Source: Alphaproteobacteria bacterium (GTDB lineage: Bacteria; Pseudomonadota; Alphaproteobacteria; JAAXGF01). Taken from it: DNA of 64,000 bases. The stretch lies in contig JAYGED010000241.1 in the NCBI GenBank assembly GCA_046582565.1, forward strand, positions 1,071 to 65,070, given 5' to 3'. The notes beneath the pieces are model-generated. The model searched no databases, was not told the DNA's origin, and saw only the letters and a list, made by a program, of their open reading frames with translations. Of this stretch, positions 5,177-43,018 are shown one piece after another (positions within the stretch are counted from its first letter, which is position 1; every line of letters begins with the position of its first letter). The position numbers were made by a program, and so were the translations under genes.

Positions 5177-5263
5177 GGCATTCTCCAATTCATCGGGACC
5201 GACATGTCCCCGACACCCACCAAATTCAGCAAGATCATACCACCGTTCCGTCACCGAGAGAAC

Positions 5264-5310
5264 TGGTGCGCCCGACAGGATTCGAACCTGCGGCCACCAG
5301 ATTAGGAATC
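5264..5310 (-). pseudogene. 3' fragment (anticodon loop to CCA end, 47 nt) of a tRNA-Arg gene; putative att-site direct repeat
   Basis: 39/47 identity to the 3' part of the intact tRNA-Arg(CCT) at 19469-19545 in the same orientation, including identical anticodon loop (CAGATTAGGAATC on + strand), T-loop TTCGAAT and acceptor CGGGCGC-A-CCA; compensatory changes in T-stem; 5' half absent. Confidence 0.7.
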
Positions 5311-5863
5311 ATAACACCGGCCGAGAAAATTTATTATATATCAATAGGTTGGTGTTCATAGTTTGCGTCTAGCAACGCCACAGCAACGGCCCGGCATCGT
5401 TATGCAGCATACCGGCACGTCGAATCACCTACATGTACTACTACCCTTTAGATTCTAATAAGAATGTGCCGTCCACACTGTCCGCGCCGTCCTCAAGCCA
5501 ATGAAAACATTTCCTTAGGCGAAAACGCTTTGCCGTCCGCATGTGTCTGCAACCGTCCGAATTGAGGGCGGTGTACAGCCTAATGTCCGCTTTCGGGGGT
5601 AAAGCAGACCTAATTCACTAGGTGCTGCAATGTCTGCTTATAGCTATAACCGGAAGTTTGTGATGCCGGCGCGGCTCATGGGCTCGTGGGCATCTTACTT
5701 GCTTGGAGGTGGATACACAGTCCACCTCGGCCGCTGCCACCTTGGCGATGGTGCCGTTACGCGAAATACCGGCTTTATCGGCTCCGAAATGCGCGGTGGC
5801 CGCGGACTTGCACACGGGGGCCTACGACCTGGCCCGCGACCTTTGGCGTTGAGCGCGCGCCGT

Positions 5864-7735
5864 TCAGGCGTGGCCGTCGACAGGCTGCTGATAGGCGGCG
5901 AGTTCGTCGATCTCGCGGTGGCAGTGAATGACATGGTCATCCCCCGCCTGACGTGCCGGCGGCGGCTCGCCATCGCAGATGCCGGGCATCATCAGCGGGC
6001 AGCGGGTGCGGAACGGGCAAGCGCTGTCGCGCGGCATGACTCCGGCAAACGCACCGCCACCCTTGGCCGCGTGATCTTCGAGTGCGGTATCGAGCCAGTC
6101 CAGCCGAAGCGCCGGTACCGAGGCAATCAGTAGCGACGTATAGGGATGGTGCGGCGCGGCGAACACCCGTTCGGTGGGGCCGATATCGACCACCCGTCCG
6201 GCGTAAAGCACGGCCACCCGGTCGGCGATGGTCGCCACCGTCGAGAGGTCGTGGGAAATAAACATGTAGGCGACCTGGAATCTCTGGCGCAGGTCGCGCA
6301 TTAAGTCGAGTACCGAAGCAGCGACGACGGTGTCCAGCGACGACAATACCTCGTCGCACAGCACCAGTTCCGGCTTGGCGGCAAAGGCGCGGGCCAGGGA
6401 AAGCCGCTGGCGTTCGCCACCCGACAGCTCGCCGGGATAGCGCCCGGCAAAGTCGGTGTCGAGGCCGACGCTTTCCAGCAGCTCGTCGACCCGGTCGCGG
6501 CGCTCGGCCGCGGTCATATCGAAATAGAGCTCGAGCGGCCGGCCCAGGGACTTTTCCACTAGATGTTCGGGATTGAGCGACAGGTCCGGGCTCTGAAATA
6601 CGATCTGGATTTTTCGTAAAGTGTCGAGCTGGCGGTCGGCAACACTGCCGCGCAGAGTCTCGCCGGAGAATTCAAGCTCGCCGGAGAGGGCCGGATGGAG
6701 GCCGGCGACAACCCGCGCCAGAGTGCTCTTGCCGCAGCCTGACTCGCCGACCACCGCGAGGACTTCCTGGGCCCGGACATCGAGAGTGACGTCCTGGAGA
6801 ACCTGCTGTTCGCGTTTGATGGTTCCAAACAGCGGCGGGCGTTCATACGTCGCACAGACAGATTTGATACGCAGCAGAACGTTGTCGGACTTCGCCTCCG
6901 TCTCCGCCTCCGGCTCGGCCACCGTGACCGGTTTCGCGCCGGTATTGGGCGGCGGCCGGACTGCTGATAGCAGCAGCTTGGTGTAATCGTCCTGGGGATT
7001 GTTGAGAATTTCGTCCGCCGTGCCTTCTTCGACCACGCGGCCGCCGTTCATGACCAATATGCGGTCGGCGACCTGGGCCACCACCGCGAGGTCGTGGGAG
7101 ACGTAGATCGCCGCCATGTGGCGGTCCTGAATGGCGTCCTTGATGGCCTTCAGAACTTCAATCTGGGTGGTAACGTCGAGCGCCGTGGTCGGCTCGTCGA
7201 GGACCAGCAGCTTGGGCCCGCAGCTCATCGCCATGGCCATCATGATGCGCTGCTGCTGGCCGCCGCTGGCCTGGTGCGGGTAACGCTCGACCAGGGCCGG
7301 CGGATCGGGCAGGTCGAGGGTGGTCAGCAGATCGATCACGCGGCGCTCGGCTTCCTCGCCGTCGGAGATGCCGTGAATGACCAGCCCCTCGCCGACCTGC
7401 TCGCCGATCGGGATCGCCGGATTGAGGGAGGCCTGGGCGCTCTGCGCCACGTAGGCGACGTCCTTACCGCGCAACTCGCGGCGCTGGCGAGAGCTGAGCT
7501 TGAGGACATCAACGTCGTCCAGGAAGACGCGGCCGCCGATAATTTGCGTACCGGGCCGCGCATAGCCGAGCGCGCTGAGCGCCACGGTCGTCTTGCCGGC
7601 GCCCGATTCGCCGATCAGCGCGACAACCTCGCGCGGACGGATCTCAAGGCTCACATTGTCGGCGATGGTGATAACGGCGCCGGTCGGCGTGCGTGCCTCG
7701 ACGACCAACTCCTCGATCCGCAGCAATGCGGTCAC
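5864..7735 (-). CDS. ABC transporter ATP-binding protein, fused double NBD (DppD/DppF-like, peptide/opine/nickel family)
   Basis: Two Walker A motifs ([18 protein letters not shown]), two LSGGQ signatures, C-terminal Cys cluster typical of Opp/Dpp ATPases; GTG start at 7735 overlapping upstream permease stop (GTGA). Confidence 0.8.
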
Positions 7736-8625
7736 TGGGTCAGCTCTTCCGAGATGCTGCGGCCAGACTGGCTCGACATCCAATCGACCAGAAGGTTGAC
7801 GCCGATGGTCAGGGTGCCGATGGCGACGGCCGGCAACACCGGGGCCATGGAGCCGAGCAGAATACCCGACAGGTTCTCCCGGACCATGCTGCCCCAATCG
7901 GCTGCGGGCGGCTGAATGCCGAGCCCGAGGAAGCTGAGGCTGGAAAGAAACAGAATGGCGAAGGTCAGGCGAAGGCCGAATTCCACCGCCAGGGGGCGGA
8001 GCGTATTGGGCAGAATTTCGCGCACCAGCACCGAGGTCAGCGATTCGCCCCGGGCCCGCGCCACCTCGACATAGTCGAGGACCACGACGTTCATGGCCAC
8101 GGCGCGGGCAATGCGGGCAATGCGCGGTGCGCTGACCACGGCGATGGTACCGATCAAGACATAGATATCGGTCCCCAGCGCGACGATGATGATCAGCGCC
8201 ATCATGATCGGCGGGAAGGAAATGAAGACATCGATCAACCAGGTGATGAAGTCATCGGTGCGGCCGCGGATCTCAGCGGCGGCGAAACCGACGATCATGC
8301 CCATGGCAAACCCGATGAGATTTGAAATTAAAGCAATGCCGATGGTCAGGTGAGCGCCGTGGAGCATGCGCGACAGCACGTCGCGGCCCAGGGCGTCACT
8401 GCCCATGAAGCTAATTTCATCGCCGGGCGGCGAGTAGGCCTTCCAGACCAGTATTTCGCCCGGATCGTGAGGCGCGATGAAAGGTCCGATAATCGCCACC
8501 AAAATCCCGAACCCGACGATGATGAGCCCGATCCAGCCGTTTAAATTGAGTTTGGGGCGCTCCCGCTTGCTGCGCTTGCGCGGCGCGGCGACAGTTTTGC
8601 CGCTGGTGCCGACCATCTCGGTCAT
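7732..8625 (-). CDS. ABC transporter permease (DppC/OppC family)
   Basis: BPD_transp_1 permease topology and EAA-like loop; start overlaps upstream permease stop (ATGA). Confidence 0.8.
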   Translation of the reverse strand: MTEMVGTSGKTVAAPRKRSKRERPKLNLNGWIGLIIVGFGILVAIIGPFIAPHDPGEILVWKAYSPPGDEISFMGSDALGRDVLSRMLHGAHLTIGIALISNLIGFAMGMIVGFAAAEIRGRTDDFITWLIDVFISFPPIMMALIIIVALGTDIYVLIGTIAVVSAPRIARIARAVAMNVVVLDYVEVARARGESLTSVLVREILPNTLRPLAVEFGLRLTFAILFLSSLSFLGLGIQPPAADWGSMVRENLSGILLGSMAPVLPAVAIGTLTIGVNLLVDWMSSQSGRSISEELTQ

Positions 8626-9665
8626 GAGGTGTATCTTATGCGCGGGTTGCTCATGATCGCGATCATGTCGGCCATGATGTTGAGCACGATGTAAGTGACG
8701 CAGAAAATCAACCCGGTGATTTGCACCAACGGCAAATCACGCATGCCGATGGCGTCGACCATCAGGCGGCCAAGTCCGGGATAGGTGAAGACCACCTCGA
8801 TGACGACCACGCCGCTGATCAGATAGCCGAGATTGAGCGCGATCACGTTGACAATGGGCGCCAGGGCGTTGGGCGCGGCGTGGCGCAGAATGATGCGGCT
8901 TTTGGAGGCGCCCTTGAGCAGCGCCATTTCAACGTAGGGTGAGCGCAGAACATCGAGAATGGTAGCCCGCGTCATGCGTATCATATGCGACAGCATGGTC
9001 AGCATCAGGGTCGCCACGGGCAGGGCCAAGGCGTGCATGGCGCCGCCGAAATCGCTGAAGTCGACCCGTTTCAGCATCATCGGGAACCAGCGCATCTCCA
9101 CCGAGAAAATGATGATCAGAATGATGGCGATCAGAAAATCCGGTATGGAAACCATGAACAAGGTGACGGCATTGACAACGCGGTCGAACAGGCTGTCGGG
9201 GAAGGCGGCGGATAACAGGCCAAGCGCGATGGCCAGTGGAACAGCAATTACCGCCGTTACGATGGCCAGATAAAGGGTATTGAGAACGCGTGGCGCGACA
9301 AGGCCGTCGACCGGGAAACCATTTGCCAACGAAACACCCAGGTCGCCCGATAGAATGCGGCCAAGCCAATCGAAATACCTTGTCAGCATGGGTCGGTCGA
9401 GACCCATCTGCGCCCGCAGGGCGGCCTTCAATTCCTCGGTCGCAGATTGACCGAGAACCGCCGAGGCCACGTCACCGGGCAGGATTTCCGTGCCCGCGAA
9501 GATCAGTGCGGTGATTGCCCACAGGGTTAGAAGGCTAAGCAGAAGCCGTCGCGCCAGGAACTTCGCCAACAAACCTCGGTGCCTCCTCCAGATGCGGAAA
9601 ACGGGCCGGTTGTCGCCGGACCACAATTGATTGACGGAGTATATCCGATCGCCGTGCCGCTTCAT
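8622..9665 (-). CDS. ABC transporter permease (DppB/OppB family)
   Basis: Typical N-terminal LLRRLLL...PGD motif of DppB; true start may be internal (N-terminus of ORF-track product is non-canonical). Confidence 0.75.
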   Translation of the reverse strand: MKRHGDRIYSVNQLWSGDNRPVFRIWRRHRGLLAKFLARRLLLSLLTLWAITALIFAGTEILPGDVASAVLGQSATEELKAALRAQMGLDRPMLTRYFDWLGRILSGDLGVSLANGFPVDGLVAPRVLNTLYLAIVTAVIAVPLAIALGLLSAAFPDSLFDRVVNAVTLFMVSIPDFLIAIILIIIFSVEMRWFPMMLKRVDFSDFGGAMHALALPVATLMLTMLSHMIRMTRATILDVLRSPYVEMALLKGASKSRIILRHAAPNALAPIVNVIALNLGYLISGVVVIEVVFTYPGLGRLMVDAIGMRDLPLVQITGLIFCVTYIVLNIMADMIAIMSNPRIRYTS

Positions 9666-9796
9666 AATGGACTTTCGCGATTTGCAATCCCATACTAATC
9701 TCGATCCATCAGAGGAAGACTTGAGACGAACTTGAGTTTGATGCTGGCGCGGATAATAATGCTGGCAAGCAAATGAACATTAAGGGAGCAGATCCA

Positions 9797-11389
9797 ATGA
9801 AAAAGAAGGACGTGTTGTGTCGGGAGTTCTTGCGCGGCAAGGTGTCGCGCCGTGATTTCAATGTCGGATTGTTGAATATGGGCCTGAGCGTGGCCGCCGC
9901 CGGCGCGCTGGTCAGCCAGACCATCGCCGAGTCTCAGGCCGCGACGCCTAAACGTGGTGGTCGCCTGCGCTTCGCTTCGGCGAGTTCGGGGCCCTCCGGC
10001 ACCATCGATCCGGCCAAGGTGACGAGCGGCGTGGACATCACCCGCGGCGTTTTACTCTACGACCGTTTCGTCGACCGCGACGTCGATGGCAATTTGGTGC
10101 CGGTATTGGCCGATTCGTGGGAAACCAACGATGCGGTCGATGAATGGGTCATTCATTTGCGCCAGGGCGTCGAGTTCCACAACGGCAAGACCATGACTTC
10201 CGCCGATGTCGTCTATTCGCTTCAGCGCGTCCTGGACCCGGATACGGGATCGCCGGCCCAGCCGCTGATCAGCGATATCGCCGAAGTTTCGGCGGATGGC
10301 AAATACACGGTGAGGCTGAAGCTCAGCCAGCCCAACGCCGACCTCATGTACGCCCTCAACGAGTATCACGTGGCGATCGTGCCCGAAGGTCAGGACGATT
10401 ACACGGGCACGCCCGCCGGTACCGGACCGTGGAAGGTGAAAACCTACGAGCCGGGCATCGGCTCGTTGTTTGTGCGCAACGAAAACTACTTCATCACCGA
10501 CCGGCCCTACATCGACGAGATCGAGATCTTCGGTATTCCCGATTCCACCGCGCGCATCAACGCCCTGCTGTCGGGCGAGACCGATATCATCGCCGGCGTG
10601 GACCCGCAGCTCATCGACCTGATCAACGATGCTCCTGATTCGGAGTTACTGACCATCGCCGGTTCGGCCCATCCAACCTATCCGATGCGGGCCGATATGG
10701 AGCCCTATTCCAACAACGACGTTCGCCTGGCGATCAAGAGTTCGATCGACCGCCAGAAGTTCGTCGACCTGGCGTTCAATGGCTTGGCCTCACCGGGCCG
10801 CGACCATCCGGTGCCGCAGCACGATCCCATGCATTGCGATGAAATTCCGATTCCGCAGTTCGACCCGGACAAGGCAAAGTTCCATCTCAAGAAGGCCGGG
10901 CACGAGAACACGGTGTTCGAGATCAGCGGCTCGGACGCCAACTTCGGCGGCCTCAACGCCACCCTGATTCTCGCCGACATGGCCAACGACGCGGGCGTCA
11001 ACGTCAAGGTCAAGCGGGTGCCGACCGACGGCTACTGGAGCGACGTGTGGCTGAAGGCGCCGTGGTGCGGCTCGTCCTGGTACGGCCGGCCGACGGCGGC
11101 GTTGGTCATGGGAATCACCCATTTCGCGGATGCGAAGTGGAACGAGAGCCACTGGTATCGCGAGGATTTCGATGCGTTGTTGGTCGAGTCCAACCGCACG
11201 GCCGATCCGGTCAAGCGCAAGGAGATCCTGTGCGAGGCCCAGTGGATGATCCACAACGAAGGCTCGACCGTGATTCCGGTCTTCAGCAACTGGATCGACG
11301 CCAACAGCACCCGCGTCAAGGACCTGGTGCCCCATCCCGACGGCTTCACGGGCTGGATGCAATGGGACAGCGTCTGGCTCGACAGCTAG
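9797..11389 (+). CDS. ABC transporter substrate-binding protein, family 5 (peptide/opine/nickel), with twin-arginine signal
   Basis: SRRDFNVGLL Tat motif followed by hydrophobic stretch; SBP_bac_5 fold length (~530 aa); ATG 9797 with GGAG RBS. Confidence 0.8.
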   Translation: MKKKDVLCREFLRGKVSRRDFNVGLLNMGLSVAAAGALVSQTIAESQAATPKRGGRLRFASASSGPSGTIDPAKVTSGVDITRGVLLYDRFVDRDVDGNLVPVLADSWETNDAVDEWVIHLRQGVEFHNGKTMTSADVVYSLQRVLDPDTGSPAQPLISDIAEVSADGKYTVRLKLSQPNADLMYALNEYHVAIVPEGQDDYTGTPAGTGPWKVKTYEPGIGSLFVRNENYFITDRPYIDEIEIFGIPDSTARINALLSGETDIIAGVDPQLIDLINDAPDSELLTIAGSAHPTYPMRADMEPYSNNDVRLAIKSSIDRQKFVDLAFNGLASPGRDHPVPQHDPMHCDEIPIPQFDPDKAKFHLKKAGHENTVFEISGSDANFGGLNATLILADMANDAGVNVKVKRVPTDGYWSDVWLKAPWCGSSWYGRPTAALVMGITHFADAKWNESHWYREDFDALLVESNRTADPVKRKEILCEAQWMIHNEGSTVIPVFSNWIDANSTRVKDLVPHPDGFTGWMQWDSVWLDS

Positions 11390-11526
11390 ACGCTGACAAC
11401 AGCGCGCACGACCTGGGCCGGCCCTGCGACAACGGGGCCGGCCCTTTGCGTTTGGCGGGAGCACCGGTCTGTACGAGTGCAAGATTGGGCGATTGAACGA
11501 AGTTTTCTCCAGGAAAGGACACAGCC

Positions 11527-12777
11527 ATGACCGGTGTCGGTTTGACCACGGGACCGTTCGATGCCGCCGCCTTCGGCGAGATCACTCTGCCGTTTAGCCG
11601 TGACGAATATCTCGGCCGGATCGCCAAGCTGCGCGGCGCCATGCGCGACGAGGGCATCGACTTGCTGTGGGTGACCACGCCCGAGGCGGTGTGCTGGCTG
11701 CATGGCTTCGCCTCCAGTTGGTACAAGGGCAATGCGCCGATGCGTTATCCCCAGTGCTACGGCACGGCGATCTGGGCTCATGACGAGCGCTTCATCTACT
11801 TCGACAACCCGACAGAGGAGCCGGTGGTGGCGCGGACTTCGATCAGTGAGGACAACCGCTGGCTGCCCGACCGTGAGGCCGAACCCAATCTGCGCTTTAT
11901 CTTGGACGAGCTCGAGCGCGAGGGCTGGCTCGGCGGCACCGTCGGCATGGAATTCTGGAGCTACGTGCCCAACCGGGCCATCAGCACCATGTTCGAGGGT
12001 GGGTTCCTGTCTCATGGTGGTCGGGTGGTCGACGCCAGCGCCATGGTGCGCCGCGCCCGCCGGGTCAAGTCGACGCAAGAACTCGTCTATGTGGAAAAGG
12101 CCATGGAGATTTGCGACATCGGCCATCAGACAATTGTGGAAAACCTCAGGCCGGGCATCACCGAGCTTGAGCTGTTTGGCCAGGTCATGGCGGCGATGAT
12201 GGCGGCTGGCGGCGAGTTTCCGGCGCTGATCCCGATCTTCAATACCGCGCCGGTGGTTGACGGCCATCCCCAGTCGAACGGACACGCTCTGGCGGGGCGC
12301 AAGGTGATCGAGGCGGGCGAGTTGCTGACCACCGATCTGTGTGGTGTTTTCAACCGCTATCATGCCAACGCCGAACGGGGCTACTACGTGGGCGACAACC
12401 CGCCGGCGGCATTGGTCGAGCGCTATAGGCTGGCGGCCGGAGTGTTTGACGTCATCGCCAGCGATGTCAAAGCCGGTATGACCGTGCGCGAGGTTAACAC
12501 TCGGCTACGGCGCTATTACGAAGACGTCGGCATTTGGACTGAGAGCGAGGGCTGGGCGCTGGGCTACGAACTCGGCCTCAGCTTTCCGCCCGACTGGGTT
12601 GGCGATTTTTACTTCCACCTGGGCGACGACAAGTATCTCGACCGGGTATTCGAGGAGAATATGGTGACCAACTTCGAAAGCCTGTTCAACACCGCCCTGA
12701 TCGATACCCTGATCTACGGCAAGGACGGGACGCGAGTGTTGTCGAAAACGCCACGCAAACTGATCGCCGTAGGTTGA
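11527..12777 (+). CDS. M24-family metallopeptidase/amidohydrolase (creatinase/prolidase N-domain + M24 catalytic domain)
   Basis: 416 aa; creatinase-N-like N-terminus and pita-bread M24 domain with conserved metal-ligand region (HGxGxxxHE-type); paralog of 12826-14088. Confidence 0.7.
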   Translation: MTGVGLTTGPFDAAAFGEITLPFSRDEYLGRIAKLRGAMRDEGIDLLWVTTPEAVCWLHGFASSWYKGNAPMRYPQCYGTAIWAHDERFIYFDNPTEEPVVARTSISEDNRWLPDREAEPNLRFILDELEREGWLGGTVGMEFWSYVPNRAISTMFEGGFLSHGGRVVDASAMVRRARRVKSTQELVYVEKAMEICDIGHQTIVENLRPGITELELFGQVMAAMMAAGGEFPALIPIFNTAPVVDGHPQSNGHALAGRKVIEAGELLTTDLCGVFNRYHANAERGYYVGDNPPAALVERYRLAAGVFDVIASDVKAGMTVREVNTRLRRYYEDVGIWTESEGWALGYELGLSFPPDWVGDFYFHLGDDKYLDRVFEENMVTNFESLFNTALIDTLIYGKDGTRVLSKTPRKLIAVG

Positions 12778-12825
12778 AGCACGCGATCAGCGCCCTGATT
12801 GAGGTTCTGAGAGGAGCGCCCGTTC

Positions 12826-14088
12826 TCAGCCGACGCCCTGCAGCTCGAGCGGAGTCTTGGACAGGATCCGGGTGGCGTCCGGGCCGTAGACGCAGGTGTC
12901 GACCAGCCAGGTATTGAACATGCTTTCGAAGTTGGTCACCATATTCTCCTCGAACACGCGATCCAGCCCCTGCTCGTCACGGACGTGGAAGTAGAAATCG
13001 CCGACCCAGTCGGGCGGCAGACTGAGGCCGAGCTCGTAGCCCAGCCCCCAGCCCGGCTTGTCCCACAGGCCGACGTCCTCGTAGTAGCGGCGCAGGATGG
13101 CGATGACCTGGCGCACGGTCATGCCCGCCTTGACCTCGTTGGCGATGACGTCGAAAACACCGGCCGCGGTGCGGACGTTTTCCATCATTGCCTTGGGCGG
13201 GTCGCCGACCACGTATCCGCGCTGCACATTGGCGTGGTAGCGATAGTAAACCCCGGCGATGTCGATCTTCAGGAAATCGCCGCTTTCGATGACTTTGCGG
13301 CCCATCATGGCGTGGCCGGCGGCAATCGGCCGGCCGTCGCGGATCGGCGACGAGGTGAAACTGTGGACCAGGGCGGGAGACTCACCGCCCGCCGCCATCA
13401 TCGCCCGCAAGGTCTCGCCATAAAGCTCGAGCTCGGTCATGCCGGGCCGGGCCAGGTCGCGGACCGTCGCATGGCCGATATCGGCGATCTCGGCGGCCTT
13501 CTCGATGTGAGCGATCTCGGCCGGCGACTTGACCAGCCGGAGGCGGCGCACCAGGGCGCTGGCGTCGACCATCCGGCACCCTTCGGCGAGAAAGGCGCCT
13601 TCCAGCATGGTGCTGACCGCCCGGTTCGGCAGATAGCTCCAATGCTCGAGCCCGACAGTACCGCCGAGCCATCCCTTGGCCCTCAACTCGTCCATGATGA
13701 AGGCCAGGCAGGGGCCGGCGTCGCGCGACGGGAAGAAGCGGTTGTCGGTTGACACCGAGGTCTTGCCGAGCACCGGCAACTCGGTCGGGTTGTCGAAGTG
13801 AATGAAGTCGTCGGAATCGACGCGGATCGCCGTGCCGTAGAGTTGCGGATAGCGCATGGGGCTGCTGGCCTTGTACCAGCTCGCCACATAGCCATGGAGA
13901 TAGGCGACATGGTCCGGTGCCGTGACATACAGCAGGTCGATGTTGTGCGCCGCCATGCCTGCCCGCAGCCTGCGGATGCGCTCGAGGTACTCTTCGCGCG
14001 GGAAGGCGAGATCGCGGTACTCGGCGGGCCATTCCTCGACAGCGCCAGGCGTCAATCCGGTATAGGCCTCGGTATCTACGGTCGTCAT
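12826..14088 (-). CDS. M24-family metallopeptidase/amidohydrolase, convergent paralog of 11527-12777
   Basis: 420 aa, ~55-60% identical to neighbour over full length (e.g. VFEENMVTNFES, LSKTP..L..VG* shared C-terminus); GGGGGAGG RBS. Confidence 0.7.
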   Translation of the reverse strand: MTTVDTEAYTGLTPGAVEEWPAEYRDLAFPREEYLERIRRLRAGMAAHNIDLLYVTAPDHVAYLHGYVASWYKASSPMRYPQLYGTAIRVDSDDFIHFDNPTELPVLGKTSVSTDNRFFPSRDAGPCLAFIMDELRAKGWLGGTVGLEHWSYLPNRAVSTMLEGAFLAEGCRMVDASALVRRLRLVKSPAEIAHIEKAAEIADIGHATVRDLARPGMTELELYGETLRAMMAAGGESPALVHSFTSSPIRDGRPIAAGHAMMGRKVIESGDFLKIDIAGVYYRYHANVQRGYVVGDPPKAMMENVRTAAGVFDVIANEVKAGMTVRQVIAILRRYYEDVGLWDKPGWGLGYELGLSLPPDWVGDFYFHVRDEQGLDRVFEENMVTNFESMFNTWLVDTCVYGPDATRILSKTPLELQGVG

Positions 14089-14198
14089 GTCGAAATGCCT
14101 CCCCCTTGGTCCACGCCACCTTGGCGCTTCGCGCGCCAGCGAAGGCGAGCACTATAGCACCGGGTTTTTCTAGCGAACGGAGCTGATCGGGCACTGCC

Positions 14199-15152
14199 CT
14201 AGAGGAGCTTGCCGATCTTGTTCCAGGCCTGGGCAATGGCGACAAGGCCCGCATCGCGTTCCTCTGACAAGGCCGAGAACGAGCGACCATCCGCCATATC
14301 ATCGCTACTCTTAATCAACTCGGCGCGGAGTTCCTCGGTCAATTCCGGGGCCTTAAGCCGGGTCCATGGAAATTTGAGGGCGGGGCCGAACTGATCGAGA
14401 CAGTAGGCCATGCCGCCTTCGCCGCCGCCTATATGGTAGGTCATGCACGGCCCGGCGAAGGCCCACCGGGGCCCAGGCCCGTTGACCATGGCGATATCGA
14501 TCTGTTCAGGCGTCGCTTCTCCGTTGTCGATCATGTGGAGCGCCTCGCGCCAGACCGCTTCCTGAAGGCGGGTGGCGACAAAGCCCGGCACCTCCTTGTC
14601 CATGATCAGCGGCGCCTTGCCGGTCAGGCGGTAGAAATCAGCGGCCCATTCGAGCGCCGCCCTCTCGGTCTTTGCGCCGCCGACCATTTCGACCAGCGGC
14701 AGTAAATAGGGCGGGTTGAACGGATGTGCCACGATTGTTCGCCCAGGCGTCGAACAATCTTTCTGTATGTCCGTCATGGAGAGGCCGGATGTACTCGACG
14801 CGATGACGACGTCATCGGGAACCAGCCGGCCCAGCTTCTCGTAGAGCGCCTGCTTTAGCGCGAGGTCCTCCGGTACGCACTCCTGGACGAATTCAGCATC
14901 GCGGACCGCCTCTTCCAAATCGCTGGTGCAGCGCAACCGGTCCAGCCCGGCGCCCTCGGCCAGCCCGATCTTTGACAGACATTGCCAAGCCGTATCGAGC
15001 AGGCTCATTAATTGCGCTTCTTCCGCCGGGTCATGGAGATAACAGGTCACGTCATAGCCCTTGGCGAGAAAATGCGCCGACCAGCCGCCGCCGATTGGAC
15101 CCGCGCCAATCGTTGTCACCTGGCGCACCTCATGAATGATCTTGCGTGCCAT
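14199..15152 (-). CDS. 3-hydroxyacyl-CoA dehydrogenase family protein, L-carnitine dehydrogenase-like (NAD+)
   Basis: N-terminal GAGPIGGGWSAHFLAKGYDV Rossmann motif and C-terminal QFGPALKFPWTRLKAPELT...GRS segment resemble stand-alone LcdH-type enzymes rather than FadB-type; 317 aa. Confidence 0.6.
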   Translation of the reverse strand: MARKIIHEVRQVTTIGAGPIGGGWSAHFLAKGYDVTCYLHDPAEEAQLMSLLDTAWQCLSKIGLAEGAGLDRLRCTSDLEEAVRDAEFVQECVPEDLALKQALYEKLGRLVPDDVVIASSTSGLSMTDIQKDCSTPGRTIVAHPFNPPYLLPLVEMVGGAKTERAALEWAADFYRLTGKAPLIMDKEVPGFVATRLQEAVWREALHMIDNGEATPEQIDIAMVNGPGPRWAFAGPCMTYHIGGGEGGMAYCLDQFGPALKFPWTRLKAPELTEELRAELIKSSDDMADGRSFSALSEERDAGLVAIAQAWNKIGKLL

Positions 15153-15168
15153 TGTTGTCTTTCTCCCG

Positions 15169-15981
15169 TTACCGGCCTTTGAAATTTGCCGGACGTTTTT
15201 CCATGAACGCGCGGACGCCTTCCACCGCGTCTTCGGATTTCAGCATCTTGCGATAAATTGGCAGATCGCCTGTGCGCATCTCGTGGAACGCGCCCTCGAG
15301 GCTGATTGCCTCAATGGTGCGCAACACTTCCTTGACGGTCTGCACGGCGAGAGGCGCCGATTGAGCCAGCTGATCCGCCCATTCCCTCGCCTTTTCCATA
15401 AGCTTATCGGCGGGCACGATCACATTCACCAAACCATAGTGGGCGGCCTCCTCTGCCGTCATGCGCCGGCCCAGAAACAGCATCTCCACGGCGATGTTAT
15501 AGGGAATACGGCGGGGCAGCCTTTGCAGCGCCCCCGCATCGGGCACGATGCCGAGCGGCATTTCCGGCAGGGCGAATTCGACATGCTCGGCGGCGACGAT
15601 GAGGTCGCAGGCCATGGCGATCTCAAATCCCCCGCCGATGGTCAAGCCGTTCAGTGCTGCAATAACCGGTTTGTTCAGAACCCAGTTTTCGGTCAATCCG
15701 GCAAAGCCGCCGAAAATATTTTCCTCGCCTTCCCACCAGTCATCCAATTGTTGATCGCCGCTGTCCAGCGCCTTCAAATCCCAGCCCGCCGAAAAGACTC
15801 GATCCCCCGCGCCGGTGATGATCCCGACCCGAAGATCGTTATCTTCATGGAGGAGACGGAACGCCTCCCCCAGCTTGGCGCTGGTGGCGTTATCGATGGC
15901 GTTCACCTTCGGCCGGTCGATGGTGATCTCAAGAACCCGGCCGCGCTTTTCGATTTTTATGTCTTCGTGCGCTTGCGTCAT
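15169..15981 (-). CDS. enoyl-CoA hydratase/isomerase family, CaiD-like (carnitinyl-CoA dehydratase/crotonobetainyl-CoA hydratase-like)
   Basis: Strong collinear similarity to E. coli CaiD: LEITIDRPKVNAID, LRVGIITGAGDRVFSAGWDLKA, GGFAGLTE, KPVIAALNG, GGGFEIA, FALPE..LGIVPD, SEDAVEGVRAFMEKR, C-terminal FKGR. Confidence 0.75.
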   Translation of the reverse strand: MTQAHEDIKIEKRGRVLEITIDRPKVNAIDNATSAKLGEAFRLLHEDNDLRVGIITGAGDRVFSAGWDLKALDSGDQQLDDWWEGEENIFGGFAGLTENWVLNKPVIAALNGLTIGGGFEIAMACDLIVAAEHVEFALPEMPLGIVPDAGALQRLPRRIPYNIAVEMLFLGRRMTAEEAAHYGLVNVIVPADKLMEKAREWADQLAQSAPLAVQTVKEVLRTIEAISLEGAFHEMRTGDLPIYRKMLKSEDAVEGVRAFMEKRPANFKGR

Positions 15982-16055
15982 GGCTATCTCTCTATGTTCA
16001 TACTGCGAATGCCCTCAGATGGGTATAATACGCATGAACGTGAAAAGCATGAGGC

Positions 16056-17222
16056 ATGGCGATGGATTATCAGTTGACCGAAGAACAACGAATGCTCGTC
16101 GACTCTCTCAGCACCTTCATCGAGCAGGAGCTTCTCCCCTATGAGGACGAGACCGACAAGGCCGGCGAAGTCCCGCCCGAGCTCGGGGAGCGGATCAAGT
16201 CCAAGGCCATCGAGATGGGTTTCTTTGCAGCAAACATGCCGGAGACCGTCGGCGGCGGCGGTCTCGATTATACCAGCCTGGCGCTGATGGAGAGGGAATT
16301 CGGCAAGACCACCTATGGCCTGCACGGCTTCGTTCATCGGCCTTCAGAAATCCTCATGGCTTGTGAAGGCGAGCAGGTCGAGCGTTACCTGCTGCCCTGC
16401 GTGCGCGGCGAGAAGATGGAATTCTTCGCCCTGACCGAGCCCGGTGCCGGTTCGGACATCATGTCGATGCAGACGCGGGCGGTGCGTGACGGCGGCGATT
16501 GGATTATCAACGGCTCGAAGCATTTCATATCGGCGCCCGTGGTGGCTGATTTTGCCATTCTGTTTGCCTGCACAGGCGTGGACGATACGCCGAGGGGAGA
16601 GCGCAAGCGCGTCACCGCCTTTCTGGTGGATGCGGGAGAGCCCGGCTTCACCATCGAGCGTGGCCCGCGCTCCGCAGCACAACGAGCCTATCCCACATTC
16701 CAGCTTTCGTTTGACGGCCTGCGCGTGCCGGACAGCCAAATTCTCGGCACGGAAGGCGCCGGCCTGGAACTGGCTGACAAATGGCTGCGCATGGGCCGGC
16801 TCTGGGTCGCCGCCGCTTGCTGCGGCAGGGCCGAGCGGTTGCTGCGCCTGGCGACCGAATGGGCGGCCAGCCGCAAGCAATTCGGCAAGCCCATAGGCAG
16901 GTTCCAGGGAACCGCCTTTAAGCTCGCCGACATGGCGACCGAATTGCGCGCCGCCGATCTGCTGGTGCTCGACGCCGCCCGCAAGGCGGATCTGGGCATC
17001 ATGGAGCCTAACGATGTCGCCATGGCCAAATTGTTCGCCTCGGAAATGGTCGGGCGGGTTGCCGATAATGCGGTGCAAATCTATGGCGGCATGGGCCTCA
17101 TGGAGGACCTGCCTATCGAGCGCTTGTGGCGCGATTCGCGCCTCGACCGCATCTGGGACGGCACCTCCGAGATCCAACGCCATATTATTTCGCGCTCCTT
17201 GTTGCGGCCGCTCGGCGCCTGA
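16056..17222 (+). CDS. acyl-CoA dehydrogenase
   Basis: ACAD N/M/C domains, FALTEPGAGSD motif, catalytic-base region near C-terminus. Confidence 0.85.
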   Translation: MAMDYQLTEEQRMLVDSLSTFIEQELLPYEDETDKAGEVPPELGERIKSKAIEMGFFAANMPETVGGGGLDYTSLALMEREFGKTTYGLHGFVHRPSEILMACEGEQVERYLLPCVRGEKMEFFALTEPGAGSDIMSMQTRAVRDGGDWIINGSKHFISAPVVADFAILFACTGVDDTPRGERKRVTAFLVDAGEPGFTIERGPRSAAQRAYPTFQLSFDGLRVPDSQILGTEGAGLELADKWLRMGRLWVAAACCGRAERLLRLATEWAASRKQFGKPIGRFQGTAFKLADMATELRAADLLVLDAARKADLGIMEPNDVAMAKLFASEMVGRVADNAVQIYGGMGLMEDLPIERLWRDSRLDRIWDGTSEIQRHIISRSLLRPLGA

Positions 17223-17230
17223 TTACGGCC

Positions 17231-19324
17231 ATGACCCCAGGGCAGCGCGAAAATCTCAAACGGTTGCTTGCACCGCGGCATGCGGCCTTCATCGGCGGCG
17301 ACAGCGCCGCCGCGGCCATAGCGCAATGTGTCGCGGGCGGCTTTGCGGGGGAAATCTGGGGGGTCAACCCGCGCCGTAATGAGCTCGGCGGACGTCCTTG
17401 TTATGGGCGCGTTGAAGATCTGCCACAGGCCCCGGATGCGGTGTTCCTCGCCGTACCGGTTGACGGCGCCATCGATACGGTCGCAGCGCTCGCCGCGATC
17501 GGCGCCGGCGGTATCGTCGGTTATACGGCGGGTTTCAGCGAGACCGGCGCCGAGGGTGCGAGCCTGGAGGAACGGCTGGTCGCGGCGGCCGGCGACATGG
17601 CCCTGATCGGCCCGAACTGTTCGGGCATTCTGAGTTACGCCCACAAGGCCGCCCTGTGGCCTTTCGACCATTCGGGGCATGGAGACGGCCGCGGTGTCGC
17701 CTTCATCACGCAAAGCGGCATGCTCGGCAATACGCTGACCATGAACCAGCGGTCGGTTCCACTCGCCTATGTCATCAGTTCCGGCAATCAGGCCATGTTG
17801 GGCGTCGAGGATGTTCTCGACGTTCTGATCGAAGACCCCAAAGTCAGCGCGGTCGGGCTCTATATCGAGGGCCTGCGGGATATACCCCGATTTGCCGATG
17901 TCGCCGCGCGTGCCCTTGAGCGTAACATTCCGATTGTCGCCTTCAAGGCCGGGAGTTCACAAATCGGATCGCAGCTGACGGTTACCCATACCGGTTCGCT
18001 CTCGGGCGATGACGAGCTATATAGCGCGTTGTTTGCGCGCAGCGGCGTTGTCCGGGTGGACTCTCCCGTTGTCATGCTGGAGACGTTGAAAATGATCACG
18101 GTGGCCGGCGCGCCGAAAGGACGGCGACTCGCTGCGCTCACCTGCTCCGGCGGCGATTCGGCGATGGTCGCCGATGCCGCCGAGAAGCTTGGCCTGATCC
18201 TTGCGCAACCGACGCCCGAGGTGGCGCGGAAGCTGGAAACCTTGCTGCCGTCGATTGCCACCGTGGCTAACCCACTGGACTACACGACACCTTTGTGGGG
18301 ACATGAGGATGCGGTGACGCAAACAATAGCGGCGTTGCTCGAAGACGGGTTCGATGCCGCGCTCATGGTGCAGGATTATCCTATTCATAATCCGGGACCG
18401 AGCTACGATCCCTATCTTGCCGATGCGCGGGCCTTCACCAAGGCGAGCAAGGCGGCAATGATCCCCGCGGCCATCTGCAGTGTGTTGCCCGACAATATCG
18501 ATCCCCAGACCCGCGCTACGATGATCGAGAACGGCATTGCCCCCTTGCAAGGCGTCAACGAGGCGCTTGCCGCCATCGCCGGCGCAGCCGTGTTCGGTGA
18601 GCGCCGGACCGGGCGAGCCGGCGAAGAAACACTGCGGCTTGCCCCGCTGCCGAAGCCTATCGATAAATCCCGCACGCTGGATGAATGGCAGGGAAAACGT
18701 CTGCTGGCCGAGGCCGGGATAACCGTTCCCAACGGGCGATTGACAACCGCTGCCGAGGCGCCTGACGCGGCGCAAGAACTCGGCTTTCCCGTCGCGGTCA
18801 AACTGGTCAGCGCGGCGTTGCCGCACAAGACAGAAGCCGGCGCGCTTCGCCTTGGCGTGACGGATAGCGCAGGCGTTGCGGCGGCCTGCGCCGACATTCA
18901 AAACTCGGTTCGTGATTTCTCGCCGGAGGCTGCCACCGACAGCTTTCTCGTGGAATGCATGGTCGAAGACCCGGTGGCCGAGATCATCGTCGGCATCAGC
19001 CGAAACGACCAGTTCGGCCTGGTCATGGTGCTGGGCAGCGGCGGCGTGTTGGTGGAGCTGGTACGGGATGCCAAATCCCTGTTGTTTCCCATCAGCCGCG
19101 ACGAGGTTTCCACCAGCCTTGATGGCTTGCGGGTCTCGGCGCTGATAGCGGGTTATCGAGGCCGCCCGCCTGGCGACCGGGAGGCCTGCATCGATGCAAT
19201 ACTGCAGATTGCCCACTTCGCTGAAAGCAACCGCGATGTGCTCGCCGGGCTCGACGTCAATCCGCTGATGGTATTGCCCTCTGAAGCCGTCGCTGCGGAT
19301 GTCTTGTTGCAGATGTCGGTGTGA
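17231..19324 (+). CDS. acyl-CoA synthetase (NDP/ADP-forming), fused alpha/beta subunits (CoA-binding + succinyl-CoA-ligase-like + ATP-grasp)
   Basis: CoA_binding N-term (AFIGGD...VNPRR), conserved phospho-His loop region, C-terminal ATP-grasp; ATG 17231 eight nt after ACAD stop. Confidence 0.75.
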   Translation: MTPGQRENLKRLLAPRHAAFIGGDSAAAAIAQCVAGGFAGEIWGVNPRRNELGGRPCYGRVEDLPQAPDAVFLAVPVDGAIDTVAALAAIGAGGIVGYTAGFSETGAEGASLEERLVAAAGDMALIGPNCSGILSYAHKAALWPFDHSGHGDGRGVAFITQSGMLGNTLTMNQRSVPLAYVISSGNQAMLGVEDVLDVLIEDPKVSAVGLYIEGLRDIPRFADVAARALERNIPIVAFKAGSSQIGSQLTVTHTGSLSGDDELYSALFARSGVVRVDSPVVMLETLKMITVAGAPKGRRLAALTCSGGDSAMVADAAEKLGLILAQPTPEVARKLETLLPSIATVANPLDYTTPLWGHEDAVTQTIAALLEDGFDAALMVQDYPIHNPGPSYDPYLADARAFTKASKAAMIPAAICSVLPDNIDPQTRATMIENGIAPLQGVNEALAAIAGAAVFGERRTGRAGEETLRLAPLPKPIDKSRTLDEWQGKRLLAEAGITVPNGRLTTAAEAPDAAQELGFPVAVKLVSAALPHKTEAGALRLGVTDSAGVAAACADIQNSVRDFSPEAATDSFLVECMVEDPVAEIIVGISRNDQFGLVMVLGSGGVLVELVRDAKSLLFPISRDEVSTSLDGLRVSALIAGYRGRPPGDREACIDAILQIAHFAESNRDVLAGLDVNPLMVLPSEAVAADVLLQMSV

Positions 19325-19468
19325 GGCCGGCAATCGGGTTCTTTGAAGAACGGAATCAGCAAGAATTACAGAGTAACATGCCGTAGCAGCCCGAAGCTAG
19401 AAACGGCCGAGTCTTCTAGTAATCAACTGATATATAATAATAAATAGTATTAAATCGTAGAAGGGAGT

Positions 19469-19545
19469 TGGCGCGCCCGGCGGGATTCGAACCCACGACC
19501 CCCAGATTAGGAATCTGGTGCTCTATCCTACTGAGCTACGGGCGC
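19469..19545 (-). tRNA. tRNA-Arg (anticodon CCT)
   Basis: Reverse complement GCGCCCGTAGCTCAGTAGGATAGAGCACCAGATTCCTAATCTGGGGGTCGTGGGTTCGAATCCCGCCGGGCGCGCCA folds as cloverleaf: acceptor GCGCCCG/CGGGCGC, anticodon loop TTCCTAA, T-loop TTCGAAT, encoded CCA. Confidence 0.9.
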
Positions 19546-19733: not shown

Positions 19734-20261
19734 TCAGAAAATTGGGTCGATGGGGAAGGCGTAGTTGAGCAGGATGGAATCAAGCGCCGGGCTGCTCGCA
19801 TAGACGCCGCCGTTCGAGATATGCGAATAGGTCACGCCGAGCCGGGCTTCGTTGTCGAAGATATAGGCGAAGGTCAGCGCGCCGTGGATTTCGAAGGTGC
19901 CGCCGAGGTCCTTGCCGTCGCCCGGCGTGAAGGCGCCGAGGCCGCCCTCGGGGCGGATGACAAGTGAGTCGCTGAAGAAAAAATCGCCATAGATCCCGGC
20001 ATAGCCAAAAACCCCGCCCTTGCCGGTGATGGTCAGCCCAATGAGCGGCCCGACGCCGCTGAACCAGGTGCCGTTGCCGAAGATCGTCCGGGCCCAGGAA
20101 TGTTCGATATTCGCCTCGACGGTGGGCTCGTCGAAATCGTCGATATCGGAATGGCCCACATTGAGGACGATGAGGTTGCGGTCCCTGGCCACGGCGGGGG
20201 AGAGGGCGGCGAAGATCAGGATAATCGCGCCAAACGCCGCCGTGACTTTATCAATCACCAT
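19734..20261 (-). CDS. outer-membrane acyloxyacyl hydrolase / lipid A 3-O-deacylase PagL-like protein
   Basis: Signal peptide, ~175 aa beta-barrel-like composition, C-terminal SHISNGG (His-x-Ser-Asn) motif characteristic of PagL family. Confidence 0.55.
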   Translation of the reverse strand: MVIDKVTAAFGAIILIFAALSPAVARDRNLIVLNVGHSDIDDFDEPTVEANIEHSWARTIFGNGTWFSGVGPLIGLTITGKGGVFGYAGIYGDFFFSDSLVIRPEGGLGAFTPGDGKDLGGTFEIHGALTFAYIFDNEARLGVTYSHISNGGVYASSPALDSILLNYAFPIDPIF

Positions 20262-20301
20262 GTCTCAAGGCCTCGTCATTGAATCTGTAAAAAAAGGGGC
20301 G

Positions 20302-20835
20302 TCACGGCGTGCCGCCGAGCGGGATAGAATAGCTCAGCACGATGGATTCCGTGCCCGGGTTGTTATCGCTGATGCTGGCGTTGGAAATATGTGAGATGGC
20401 GATACCCAGGCGCGCCTTGTTGCCGAAGCGGTAAGCGACTTCGATGCCGGATCGGAACTCGATGACCGAGCCAAGATCCTTTGCGGTTCCTCTGCGATAG
20501 CCGCCAATGGCGAAATTGGGCATCACCACCCAACTGTTGCCCAGGTAGATATCGAGATTGACCCCGCCATAACCGTAGATGCCGCCCTGGCTGTTGCCGA
20601 GCAGCCCGACCATCGGCTTGAGGAACAGATAGGTGCGGTTTGAGCGATATTCCATGCGGAATTCCACCGCGGTTTCGTTGTCGTTCACGTCGATTCCGCC
20701 GATGCTGAGGGTCAGAAAATCGGGATCGGCGGCGGCGGCTGTGGATGTGATGGTCAAGGCCTGGACAACCAGCAGGCACAGTATCAAAATCATACCCGGT
20801 GCCGCACCGACGCTGATTACGCTCATCCGCCCCAT
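20302..20835 (-). CDS. PagL-like outer-membrane deacylase, tandem paralog
   Basis: Paralogous to 19734-20261 (SHISNASISDNNPG motif, same length); ATG 20835 with GAAGGG RBS and signal peptide MILILCLLVVQALT. Confidence 0.55.
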   Translation of the reverse strand: MGRMSVISVGAAPGMILILCLLVVQALTITSTAAAADPDFLTLSIGGIDVNDNETAVEFRMEYRSNRTYLFLKPMVGLLGNSQGGIYGYGGVNLDIYLGNSWVVMPNFAIGGYRRGTAKDLGSVIEFRSGIEVAYRFGNKARLGIAISHISNASISDNNPGTESIVLSYSIPLGGTP

Positions 20836-20946
20836 ATGCCTAAACCCTTCAACCCCCTGCCTTGCGCTGCAGAGTGTAAGTAAAATCCACGCCCGCGCAA
20901 CCGGCCATGGTCTTCTTACCGCGCGCACCGTGATATAGTCGGAGCG

Positions 20947-42005: not shown

Positions 42006-42053
42006 AGCGCGATGATGGAACGGGAGGCTCTGGAAGGCTACCGGAAAGTGGCC

Positions 42054-42130
42054 GTCAGCCATCAGCCATCAAGCCATCAGCAGTCAGCCATCAGCCATCA
42101 GCCATCAGCCATCAGCCATCAGCAGTCAGC
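42054..42130. repeat. tandem heptanucleotide repeat (ATCAGCC/GTCAGCC, 11 units, two variants ATCAGCA, one 8-nt unit) ~50 bp upstream of GMC oxidoreductase start
   Basis: Seen directly: gtcagcc atcagcc atcaagcc atcagca gtcagcc atcagcc x4 atcagca gtcagc. Confidence 0.9.
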
Positions 42131-42168
42131 TTAAAACTTTCTCGCTGACAGCTGACGGCTGATCGCTT

Positions 42169-42414: not shown

Positions 42415-42583
42415 TCTTATGTCCTTCCCATGAGCCAATTCCCGGCGCATGCCGGGCCAGCTTGTATAGCGGCGGGGCGGAGCACGCGCAACAGCGCCTT
42501 TAGACTCGTCTGCTTAGGTTTCCTAAACTACCATCGAAAGCCTTCCCAGGCGCCAAGTCCCATTCCTCTTGAACGAGCAAAAA

Positions 42584-42997: not shown

Positions 42998-43018
42998 TCG
43001 CAAAAGCATTCCGCCGTT

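Follow-up and report, generated by a model that had tools for sequence, protein, structure and literature searches.

A tRNA-bounded gene block of an alphaproteobacterium with a bco-type CoA module, a Dpp/Opp-type importer and two DoeA-like M24 hydrolases

The usual later steps of the bco-type pathway for gamma-butyrobetaine and carnitine are a BKACE cleavage, which gives betainyl-CoA and acetoacetate, and the subsequent hydrolysis of the thioester. The enzymes of the bco gene cluster of Sinorhizobium meliloti were reportedly characterised by Bazire et al. in 2019. BcoAB of S. meliloti converts the acid, together with ATP and CoA, to gamma-butyrobetainyl-CoA (10.1101/2021.01.25.428109), and SM2011_c01638 is a bifunctional carnitine dehydrogenase/betainyl-CoA thioesterase (PMC12482172). 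Here, this bco/cdh cluster is compared with a block of ten genes located in a 64,000-nt stretch of DNA from an alphaproteobacterium (assembly GCA_046582565.1, contig JAYGED010000241.1, positions 1,071–65,070), which is referred to as the window and numbered from its first letter. The block comprises a four-gene CoA module, a Dpp/Opp-type importer, and two hydrolase genes of the M24 family. Judged by the homology of its proteins, the CoA module is a variant of the known gamma-butyrobetaine/carnitine system; the bco-type roles are proposed because of both homology and synteny with the characterised BcoA/B–BcoC–BcoD–carnitine dehydrogenase cluster of S. meliloti. As for the whole block, we favour, with a probability of about 0.6, the explanation that it is a composite, in which the bco-type module is joined by an importer that plausibly serves it and by two orphan hydrolases resembling the ectoine hydrolase DoeA.

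The four-gene CoA module

Scans with the Pfam and NCBIfam models confirmed the ten genes, their coordinates, and their domains as set out in a preliminary description of this DNA. The CoA module consists of two divergent gene pairs separated by a short intergenic region:

14199–15152, minus strand: 3-hydroxyacyl-CoA dehydrogenase (HCDH), L-carnitine-dehydrogenase-like, short form of 317 aa without thioesterase domain (3HCDH_N and 3HCDH)
15169–15981, minus strand: enoyl-CoA hydratase (ECH), putative BcoD/CaiD-like crotonobetainyl-CoA hydratase (ECH_1)
15982–16055, no strand: divergent promoter region of the ECH and ACAD genes, 74 nt (aligned with locus L090)
16056–17222, plus strand: acyl-CoA dehydrogenase (ACAD), putative BcoC-like gamma-butyrobetainyl-CoA dehydrogenase (56% identical to S. 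meliloti BcoC)
17231–19324, plus strand: fused ADP-forming acyl-CoA synthetase (ACS), BcoA/B-like (CoA_binding_2, Succ_CoA_lig, and ATP-grasp_5)

The open reading frame (ORF) of ACS spans 17126–19324, and its likely start is the ATG at 17231, which leaves a gap of 8 nt to the ACAD gene.

The S. meliloti locus was recovered by tblastn of PLSDB, and its gene order is PotD-type ATP-binding cassette (ABC) transporter, short-chain dehydrogenase/reductase, GlxA, BKACE, carnitine 3-dehydrogenase, ACAD, the ligase, caiD, and a family-5 ABC transporter. As in this cluster, the fused ADP-forming ligase of the window directly follows the ACAD gene, a CaiD-like hydratase and a putative LcdH-type dehydrogenase belong to the set, and a family-5 ABC transporter lies beside it. 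ACS is 40% identical to the product of the ligase gene sited between bcoC and bcoD, ACAD 56% to BcoC, ECH 46% to BcoD, and HCDH 37.5% to the dehydrogenase domain of the carnitine dehydrogenase, and the NCBIfam profiles of the two sets are near-identical. The preliminary description had regarded the pathway as unassigned and as matching no bco locus, a view that we abandoned, as the adjacent ACAD and ACS genes and the CaiD-like ECH gene correspond to the BcoC–BcoA/B–BcoD set of S. meliloti. The two clusters nevertheless differ in several respects. The dehydrogenase has 317 aa in the window and 496 aa in S. meliloti, where it includes the thioesterase domain; the ECH and HCDH genes of the window are divergent from those of ACAD and ACS; two M24 hydrolase genes are present; and BKACE, the GlxA regulator, and the PotD-type transporter are missing (a PotD-type binding protein gave no tblastn match within the 64-kb window). 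The S. meliloti record itself (L088; CP090106.1, 2519412–2541441, 3.7 Mb) is labelled 'plasmid pSymB', but it carries SM2011_c-type genes and we take it to be the chromosome. The ligase gene of this record gave a match in two separate pieces and is missing from the PLSDB gene table; it may be frameshifted in this strain.

To calibrate the scores, the proteins of the S. meliloti cluster were run on the same NCBIfam models as those of the window. Both the CaiD-like nature of the hydratase and the LcdH-like nature of the dehydrogenase, proposed in the preliminary description, were borne out by collinearity. Residues 6–270 of ECH align with positions 3–261 of the 261-position CaiD profile NF002936, and the score of 311.7 bits is practically that of S. 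meliloti BcoD (310.5; cutoff 500). ECH has Glu residues in its GGGFEIA and LPEMPLG motifs, which are presumably the two crotonase catalytic positions, and its top-named PDB match is the carnitinyl-CoA dehydratase 3R0O. The top model of HCDH is that of L-carnitine dehydrogenase, NF005471, with residues 5–310 aligned to positions 3–308 of 321 at 308 bits, where the S. meliloti carnitine dehydrogenase reaches 331 (cutoff 414). The solved structures nearest to HCDH, with E values from 6e-41 to 3e-39, belong to lambda-crystallin and FHMPC dehydrogenase, both of which act on free acids, and the best 3-hydroxybutyryl-CoA dehydrogenase structure gave only E 4e-25. On the AcrC and CaiA models, ACAD scored 267 and 193 bits, and BcoC 305 and 184; the CaiA cutoff of 540 was not reached by ACAD. 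The C-terminal motif ERIWDGTSEIQRHIISR is common to ACAD and BcoC, and the C-terminus of ACAD (window 17150–17200) has an Asp (WDG) that also occurs in BcoC and in the orthologs of loci L008 and L089; we take it to occupy the position of the catalytic Glu (YEG) in the medium- and short-chain acyl-CoA dehydrogenases (MCAD/SCAD). ACS corresponds to the fused NDP-forming ligase of the preliminary description, with its CoA_binding, Succ_CoA_lig, and ATP-grasp_5 domains, and its THTGS motif, presumably the phosphohistidine loop, is invariant across the alignment of ACS homologs. The scores of ECH, ACAD, and HCDH below the CaiD, CaiA, and LcdH cutoffs were initially considered as an argument against these functions; since the proteins of S. 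meliloti fall equally far short of these cutoffs, such scores are not evidence against function, and the argument was dropped. The ACAD signature, the structural relatives of HCDH, and the motifs of ECH and ACS agree with a carnitine-type assignment.

The cai pathway of Escherichia coli (CaiTABCDE) runs reductively under anaerobiosis. The window ECH aligns collinearly with CaiD, and ACAD is a relative of CaiA, but none of the ten genes encodes a CoA_transf_3 (CaiB), AMP-binding (CaiC), or BCCT (CaiT) domain, the scores are under the equivalog cutoffs (312 against 500 bits for CaiD and 193 against 540 for CaiA), and the NAD-dependent dehydrogenase of the window points to oxidative catabolism.

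To follow the module in other genomes, an alignment of ACS homologs was used to fetch 80 genomic loci (numbered loci, L, below), which were then searched with the window proteins by tblastn. The HCDH and/or ECH gene was found beside the ligase gene in about 60 of them and all four core genes in about 50, the hosts being alpha-, gamma- and other proteobacteria. The identity to the window proteins was 57–82% for HCDH, ECH, and ACAD (57–80% for the HCDH orthologs) and 46–60% for ACS, and the nearest relatives keep the divergent layout of ECH–HCDH and ACAD–ACS. About 50 loci have a BKACE (DUF849) gene next to the core and about 40 that of a DJ-1/PfpI-AraC regulator (GlxA/CdhR-type), many loci also have genes of a PotD-type ABC importer, an LLM oxidoreductase, or a serine hydrolase, and some cores adjoin sarcosine oxidase or dimethylglycine dehydrogenase genes. 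This widespread variant occurs in marine and soil Alpha- and Gammaproteobacteria (e.g., Parasedimentitalea marina pW43B, Shimia gijangensis, and metagenome-assembled genomes (MAGs) of Thalassospiraceae and Rhodospirillales) and shares the four-gene core and the short dehydrogenase with the window. In contrast to the window, it nearly always includes BKACE and the GlxA regulator, and its ECH–ACAD intergenic region is 100–380 nt long with repeated motifs, compared with 74 nt. A bare four-gene core having neither an adjacent BKACE nor a regulator gene was also detected in L011, L028, L012, L047, and L051; thus, a core without adjacent BKACE is not unique to the window. In one of these bare-core loci (L028, 4721–5944), the gene after HCDH, on the same strand, encodes an Amidohydro_1 hydrolase and sits where the window has M24b.

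Alignment of the ECH–ACAD intergenic region showed that it is 95 nt shorter than that of the nearest relative, L090 (730–904), in which ACS is 86% and ACAD and ECH are 91% identical to the window proteins. The additional 95 nt of L090 carry TTTCGCCA, GACGAAA, and GCGAAT motifs, similar to the repeats of the other loci, where TTTCG(A/C)CA and TCGAAA motifs are repeated in the 100–380-nt region. These repeated motifs are possible operator sites for the regulator that is missing from the window. The junction formed by the 95-nt loss gives a perfect TATAAT in the window.

According to the proposed assignment, ACS would convert gamma-butyrobetaine, or a very close analogue, with ATP and CoA to gamma-butyrobetainyl-CoA or the corresponding CoA ester, ACAD would form crotonobetainyl-CoA from it, and ECH would yield L-carnitinyl-CoA. 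The CoA would then be removed, conceivably by reversal of the ADP-forming ligase, and HCDH would convert L-carnitine to 3-dehydrocarnitine. Since BKACE, the thioester hydrolysis step, and the GlxA/CdhR regulator are not encoded in the window, they must sit elsewhere in the genome or be bypassed. The dehydrogenase of the widespread variant has no thioesterase domain like that of the S. meliloti enzyme, and some copies, including the one in the window, have no BKACE. Gamma-butyrobetaine, carnitine, and glycine betaine are osmolytes that are rich in nitrogen and abundant. For numerous Alpha- and Gammaproteobacteria from sea and soil, recognition of the core as bco-type would allow an annotation of these genes, which now bear generic names.

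The M24 pair and its genomic partners

The two hydrolase genes lie between the importer genes and the CoA module, and a terminator-like hairpin precedes the first of them:

11415–11444, plus strand: terminator-like hairpin after the binding-protein gene and before M24a (11 G–C pairs among 12, with a T-rich tail downstream)
11527–12777, plus strand: M24a, DoeA/creatinase-like pita-bread hydrolase (Creatinase_N and Peptidase_M24)
12826–14088, minus strand: M24b, paralog of M24a (Creatinase_N and Peptidase_M24)

M24a and M24b are 62% identical and belong to a subfamily represented by 490 database clusters at E ≤ 0.001, with a mean column identity of 74% over 20 members from different contexts. 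A literature search on this subfamily found nothing. The nearest match of the pair by both sequence and fold is the ectoine hydrolase DoeA/EutD (6TWJ, 6TWK, 6YO9). DoeA was the top match of M24b by sequence (6TWJ, E 9e-26), and the AlphaFold model of M24b (predicted local distance difference test score, pLDDT, 85) gave DoeA 6YO9 as its best Foldseek match (E 2e-30, 22% identity). A GY..G(I/L)S.PPDW motif is common to DoeA and the M24 pair. However, the pair is just 22–23% identical to DoeA and misses the equivalog cutoffs, since the DoeA models TIGR02993 and NF038259 gave 103–135 bits (103–119 for M24a) at cutoffs of 575–613, and none of the partners of ectoine catabolism (DoeB/EutE deacetylase, DoeC, DoeD, EnuR) was found among the window ORFs scanned. 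Creatinase is more remote, as 1CHM gave only a partial alignment at E 3.5e-8 and the creatinase structures ranked 7th or lower in the fold search, with 17–21% identity.

The metal ligands were read against the sequence of the E. coli methionine aminopeptidase (MetAP), with a check at seven landmark positions. Of its residues, D97 and E204 recur in the pair; N stands in place of D108, L or Y in place of H171, and S in place of H178, and E235 is aligned with a gap. The D-to-N and H-to-Y changes were seen in the HMMER alignment with the prolidase 3Q6D, too. Only two of the five canonical M24 metal ligands (D, D, H, E, E) are clearly retained. DoeA itself has E and P at two positions that hold Asp ligands in the canonical M24 enzymes. 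Judged by these residues, M24a and M24b are not prolidases or canonical metallopeptidases. They have no intact di-metal site and would most likely cleave a C–N bond in a small polar nitrogen compound.

M24 proteins also have a place in an explanation of the block by dimethylsulfoniopropionate (DMSP) or acrylate metabolism, as DddP is a member of this family. In that case, the ACS gene would encode a DddX-type lyase or a ligase for acrylate or 3-hydroxypropionate, the M24 proteins would be DddP-like, and ACAD and ECH would function like DmdC and DmdD or in acryloyl-CoA metabolism. The structure of DddX, the ATP-dependent DMSP lyase (7CM9), has the fused domain order of ACS and aligns with it over its full length, and the best NCBIfam names of ACS and ACAD are 3-hydroxypropionate-CoA ligase and acryloyl-CoA reductase, respectively. 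BcoC shows the same AcrC-first profile as ACAD, so these names are uninformative, and the 198 bits between DddX and ACS are well under the match to the S. meliloti BcoA/B gene (40% identity). The DddP model NF043017 gave 20 bits for M24a (E 2.5e-4, cutoff 600) and no match for M24b, DddP structures ranked 43rd or lower in the fold search, and the genomic context is different, the conserved neighbours of the core being BKACE, the GlxA regulator, and methylamine genes of glycine-betaine metabolism. We consider this explanation very improbable; DddX/DddP was rejected as the main one on the ligase, DddP-model, and fold scores.

To see what accompanies the M24 genes elsewhere, 12 contigs, examined by exact look-up, and 80 metagenome loci were surveyed; about 85 loci other than the window are counted here. 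Apart from L121, a 100% identical fragment of the window sequence, no locus had an HCDH, ECH, ACAD, ACS, or BKACE gene within 10 kb of the M24 gene, including those with homologs of 84–92% identity. An ortholog of M24a with 92% identity (L119) is surrounded by genes of an LLM protein, a second M24 protein, and a PotD-type ABC importer; the homologs of L091 and L095 lie beside E1 dehydrogenase subunits and a HutI-like amidohydrolase; and among the other 84–92% homologs, one is accompanied by transposases and a Dpp system and one by LLM. More distant members have arginase pairs, DAO oxidase, or PhyH dioxygenase as neighbours. Clustering of the neighbours recovered ABC importers of three families, DAO, arginase, E1 dehydrogenase, zinc-dependent alcohol dehydrogenase, and the HutI-like amidohydrolase, but no dominant partner except some ABC importer. 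From the ligase side, an M24 match within 10 kb was found in three of the 80 loci, weak (26–44%) and never adjacent to the core; two of the three, L057 and L062, come from closely related MAGs, with 2–4 kb and unrelated genes between the match and the core. By a rough estimate, three such matches are close to chance expectation. The comparative data give no support for coupling the M24 pair to the CoA module, and the hydrolysis by M24 enzymes that, in the preliminary description, fed CoA activation could not be substantiated.

The M24 neighbours bear on a further alternative, in which the substrate is 4-guanidinobutyrate or a similar cationic omega-substituted acid, shortened to a guanidinoacetate-type product that the M24 enzymes would hydrolyse to glycine and urea. 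Arginase-family pairs, a PAD/agmatine-deiminase-like gene, FAD oxidases, and HutI-like amidohydrolases among the neighbours elsewhere would suit it, as would the creatinase/DoeA fold of a pair without an intact metal site and the lack of BKACE in the window. However, the core is 72–82% identical to orthologs that lie beside BKACE and GlxA (L008, L010, L013–L015, L020, L023, and L036), and such an identity makes a change in head-group specificity unlikely; cores that are more distant have genes of dimethylglycine dehydrogenase or sarcosine oxidase as neighbours. Neither a urease gene nor one for handling urea was found among the window ORFs scanned. We regard the guanidino substrate as improbable.

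M24a-like genes of 80–90% identity occur as tandem pairs on two metagenome contigs (L118 and L120), so that paired paralogs of the subfamily recur outside the window. The window itself carries, at 40374–50421, genes of a GMC oxidoreductase, GCS2, a HutI-like amidohydrolase, and a DUF4147/MOFRL glycerate kinase. GMC, GCS2, and glycerate kinase genes also flank a 77% homolog of M24b on another contig, which carries an ADP-forming ligase; these shared neighbours suggest that M24b has moved within the lineage. Independently of the locus, the M24 subfamily is a reasonable target for enzyme discovery.

The Dpp/Opp-type importer

The remaining four genes of the block encode an ABC importer:

5864–7735, minus strand: fused two-domain DppD/DppF-type ABC ATPase (two ABC_tran and two oligo_HPY domains)
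7732–8625, minus strand: DppC/OppC-type permease (BPD_transp_1 and OppC_N)
8622–9665, minus strand: DppB/OppB-type permease (BPD_transp_1 and BPD_transp_1_N)
9773–11389, plus strand: family-5 solute-binding protein (SBP_bac_5, with an SRRDF twin-arginine-like motif)

The ORF of the ATPase spans 5864–7897 on the minus strand, and its likely true start is the GTG at 7735, which overlaps the permease stop as GTGA. On NF008453, the model of the dipeptide ABC ATP-binding protein, the ATPase scored 436 bits, above the cutoff of 408. In the binding protein, the SRRDF motif is followed by a hydrophobic stretch, as judged by eye. The preliminary description of the transporter as an opine- or peptide-type importer was correct. 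The solved structure nearest to the binding protein is AgaA (6HLX, 137 bits), presumably an agropinic-acid-binding protein. The binding protein scored at most 136 bits against the NCBIfam families and 70–72 bits against the DppA and OppA models, the cutoffs of which are 947–1005.

The protein encoded next to bcoD in S. meliloti is much closer to the window binding protein than any NCBIfam family or solved structure, with 36% identity over 531 aa. Binding proteins 41–47% identical to this S. meliloti protein are encoded near the core in L029, L044, L048, L061, L065, and L083, and the permeases encoded beside the core in L029 and L065 are 46–48% (DppC/OppC-type) and 48–54% (DppB/OppB-type) identical to those of the window. 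By these identities, the window binding protein is classed as a distant member of a family recurring beside bco clusters. An Opp-like ABC transporter for a betaine, Prb, is mentioned in PMC11337228 with reference to Alloing 2006. The importer of the window would plausibly bring in a quaternary amine or a conjugate of one. The S. meliloti locus has two family-5 binding proteins, 72% identical to each other, and a CocE/NonD hydrolase after the cluster.

The low DppA and OppA scores are also relevant to the plainest alternative, according to which the block merely assembles short-chain fatty-acid beta-oxidation genes, Xaa-Pro dipeptidases, and a dipeptide permease. Such an ordinary locus would be in line with the generic names in public records (Xaa-Pro aminopeptidase, acetate–CoA ligase family protein). 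It is hardly tenable, however, as the binding protein is so far from DppA and OppA, no thiolase gene is present in the block, and only two of five metal ligands are certain in the M24 pair. Generic beta-oxidation was rejected because the top models of HCDH and ECH are carnitine-specific and the conserved neighbours of the core are BKACE and GlxA. The preliminary description had named generic beta-oxidation and ordinary dipeptidase relationships, together with a missing M24–CoA linkage, as speaking against its own proposal. No conserved linkage was indeed found, but the hydratase and, probably, the dehydrogenase are of the carnitine type and the M24 proteins are not ordinary prolidases.

The tRNA-bounded block and its interpretation

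All ten genes lie between two copies of tRNA-derived sequence, each accompanied by a short inverted repeat:

5257–5310, minus strand: truncated tRNA-Arg(CCU) copy, left direct repeat, with the anticodon loop, T arm, and acceptor 3' end (repeat search and alignment)
5331–5343, minus strand: 13-nt inverted repeat TGATATATAATAA, left copy, some 20 nt inward of the left tRNA repeat
19428–19440, plus strand: right copy of the 13-nt inverted repeat TGATATATAATAA, inside the right tRNA repeat
19469–19545, minus strand: intact tRNA-Arg(CCU), right direct repeat, 3' end toward the block (ARAGORN and Rfam)

The intact tRNA-Arg(CCU) gene is the sole tRNA gene of the window and is located 145 nt past the ACS stop. 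A 54-nt direct repeat (5257–5310 and 19462–19515) has 81% identity; according to the alignment, the 5' half of the tRNA is missing from the truncated copy and the T stem shows compensatory changes. Neither ARAGORN nor Rfam called a tRNA at 5257–5310. The TGATATATAATAA sequence has two matches in the 64 kb, in inverted orientation and each 20–30 nt inside the tRNA repeats, compared with none in 100 shuffles. The tRNA-derived repeats enclose exactly the ten genes (5311–19468, 14.2 kb), none of which encodes an integrase or recombinase, all being metabolic or transport genes; 5311–5864 contains only short ORFs without family match. The base composition of the block does not deviate from its surroundings, with a GC content of 0.59–0.65 inside and 0.59–0.66 outside. 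An empty site was looked for in relatives of the flanking methyltransferase gene (L175 and L176, 69–79% identity), which share no flanking synteny with the window. The Rfam scan of the window gave only the tRNA and no riboswitch or other RNA that would name a ligand. The block is arranged like an element that has inserted into a tRNA gene and looks like a 14.2-kb island without an integrase.

The joint acquisition of ten genes keeps alive the idea of one integrated catabolic pathway, although islands often carry unrelated modules. In such a pathway, the substrate taken up by the Dpp-type importer would be hydrolysed by M24a or M24b, and the released acid would be activated with CoA, desaturated, hydrated, and dehydrogenated. 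The enclosure of all genes by the tRNA-derived direct repeats and the unique inverted repeat is in favour of this, and so is the position of M24b, which follows ECH and HCDH on the same strand after a gap of 110 nt in which no terminator-like site was reported. Other bco loci also carry hydrolase genes, such as the serine hydrolase after the ligase, the Amidohydro_1 gene of L028, and the CocE/NonD gene near the S. meliloti cluster. Nevertheless, a strong terminator-like hairpin lies between M24a and the binding-protein gene, none of the M24-subfamily loci has CoA genes or BKACE within 10 kb, and the three ligase-anchored loci with an M24 match offer only weak and non-adjacent ones; we consider the integrated pathway unlikely.

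We judge it quite unlikely, too, that the block is a self-contained, horizontally moved island in which the M24 pair works with the bco-type module. In that case, the M24 enzymes might act on an imported conjugate or cyclic precursor and thereby free gamma-butyrobetaine, carnitine, or one of their analogues, or they might replace BKACE at the end of the pathway, for example by hydrolysing an amidino or guanidino head group after chain shortening. If true, this cooperation would be the first function for a large and highly conserved M24 subfamily.

The composite of bco-type module, importer, and orphan hydrolases, which we favour, has to be weighed against several observations that speak against it. 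Within the 64-kb window, no BKACE gene was found by tblastn with the S. meliloti and P. marina proteins, and no match of a GlxA/CdhR-type regulator was obtained by tblastn; no thioesterase domain was detected in the scanned ORFs of the block and of its flanks, HCDH having no C-terminal extension. As BKACE, thioesterase, and GlxA were not detected, the route to glycine betaine is incomplete here. ACS is only 40% identical to the characterised ligase, and the 95-nt loss in the promoter region could mean rewiring or decay. With the 110-nt spacing described above, M24b could be co-transcribed with ECH and HCDH, and this spacing, together with the inclusion of all ten genes in a single tRNA-bounded block, leaves room for a functional link that is invisible to the comparative data.

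The flanks consist of housekeeping genes, with MiaB-like and FtsY on one side and PagL, M48, LpxK, and KdtA on the other, which makes the block discrete. Directly past the tRNA gene, two tandem PagL-like lipid A deacylase genes are located at 19734–20964. Farther away, an HpaB-type flavin monooxygenase and a UbiD-family decarboxylase are encoded at 31706–33163 and 36402–37895, which have no relation to the genes discussed here, and the lowest GC content of the window, 0.564 compared with about 0.63 overall, was measured at 42001–44000.

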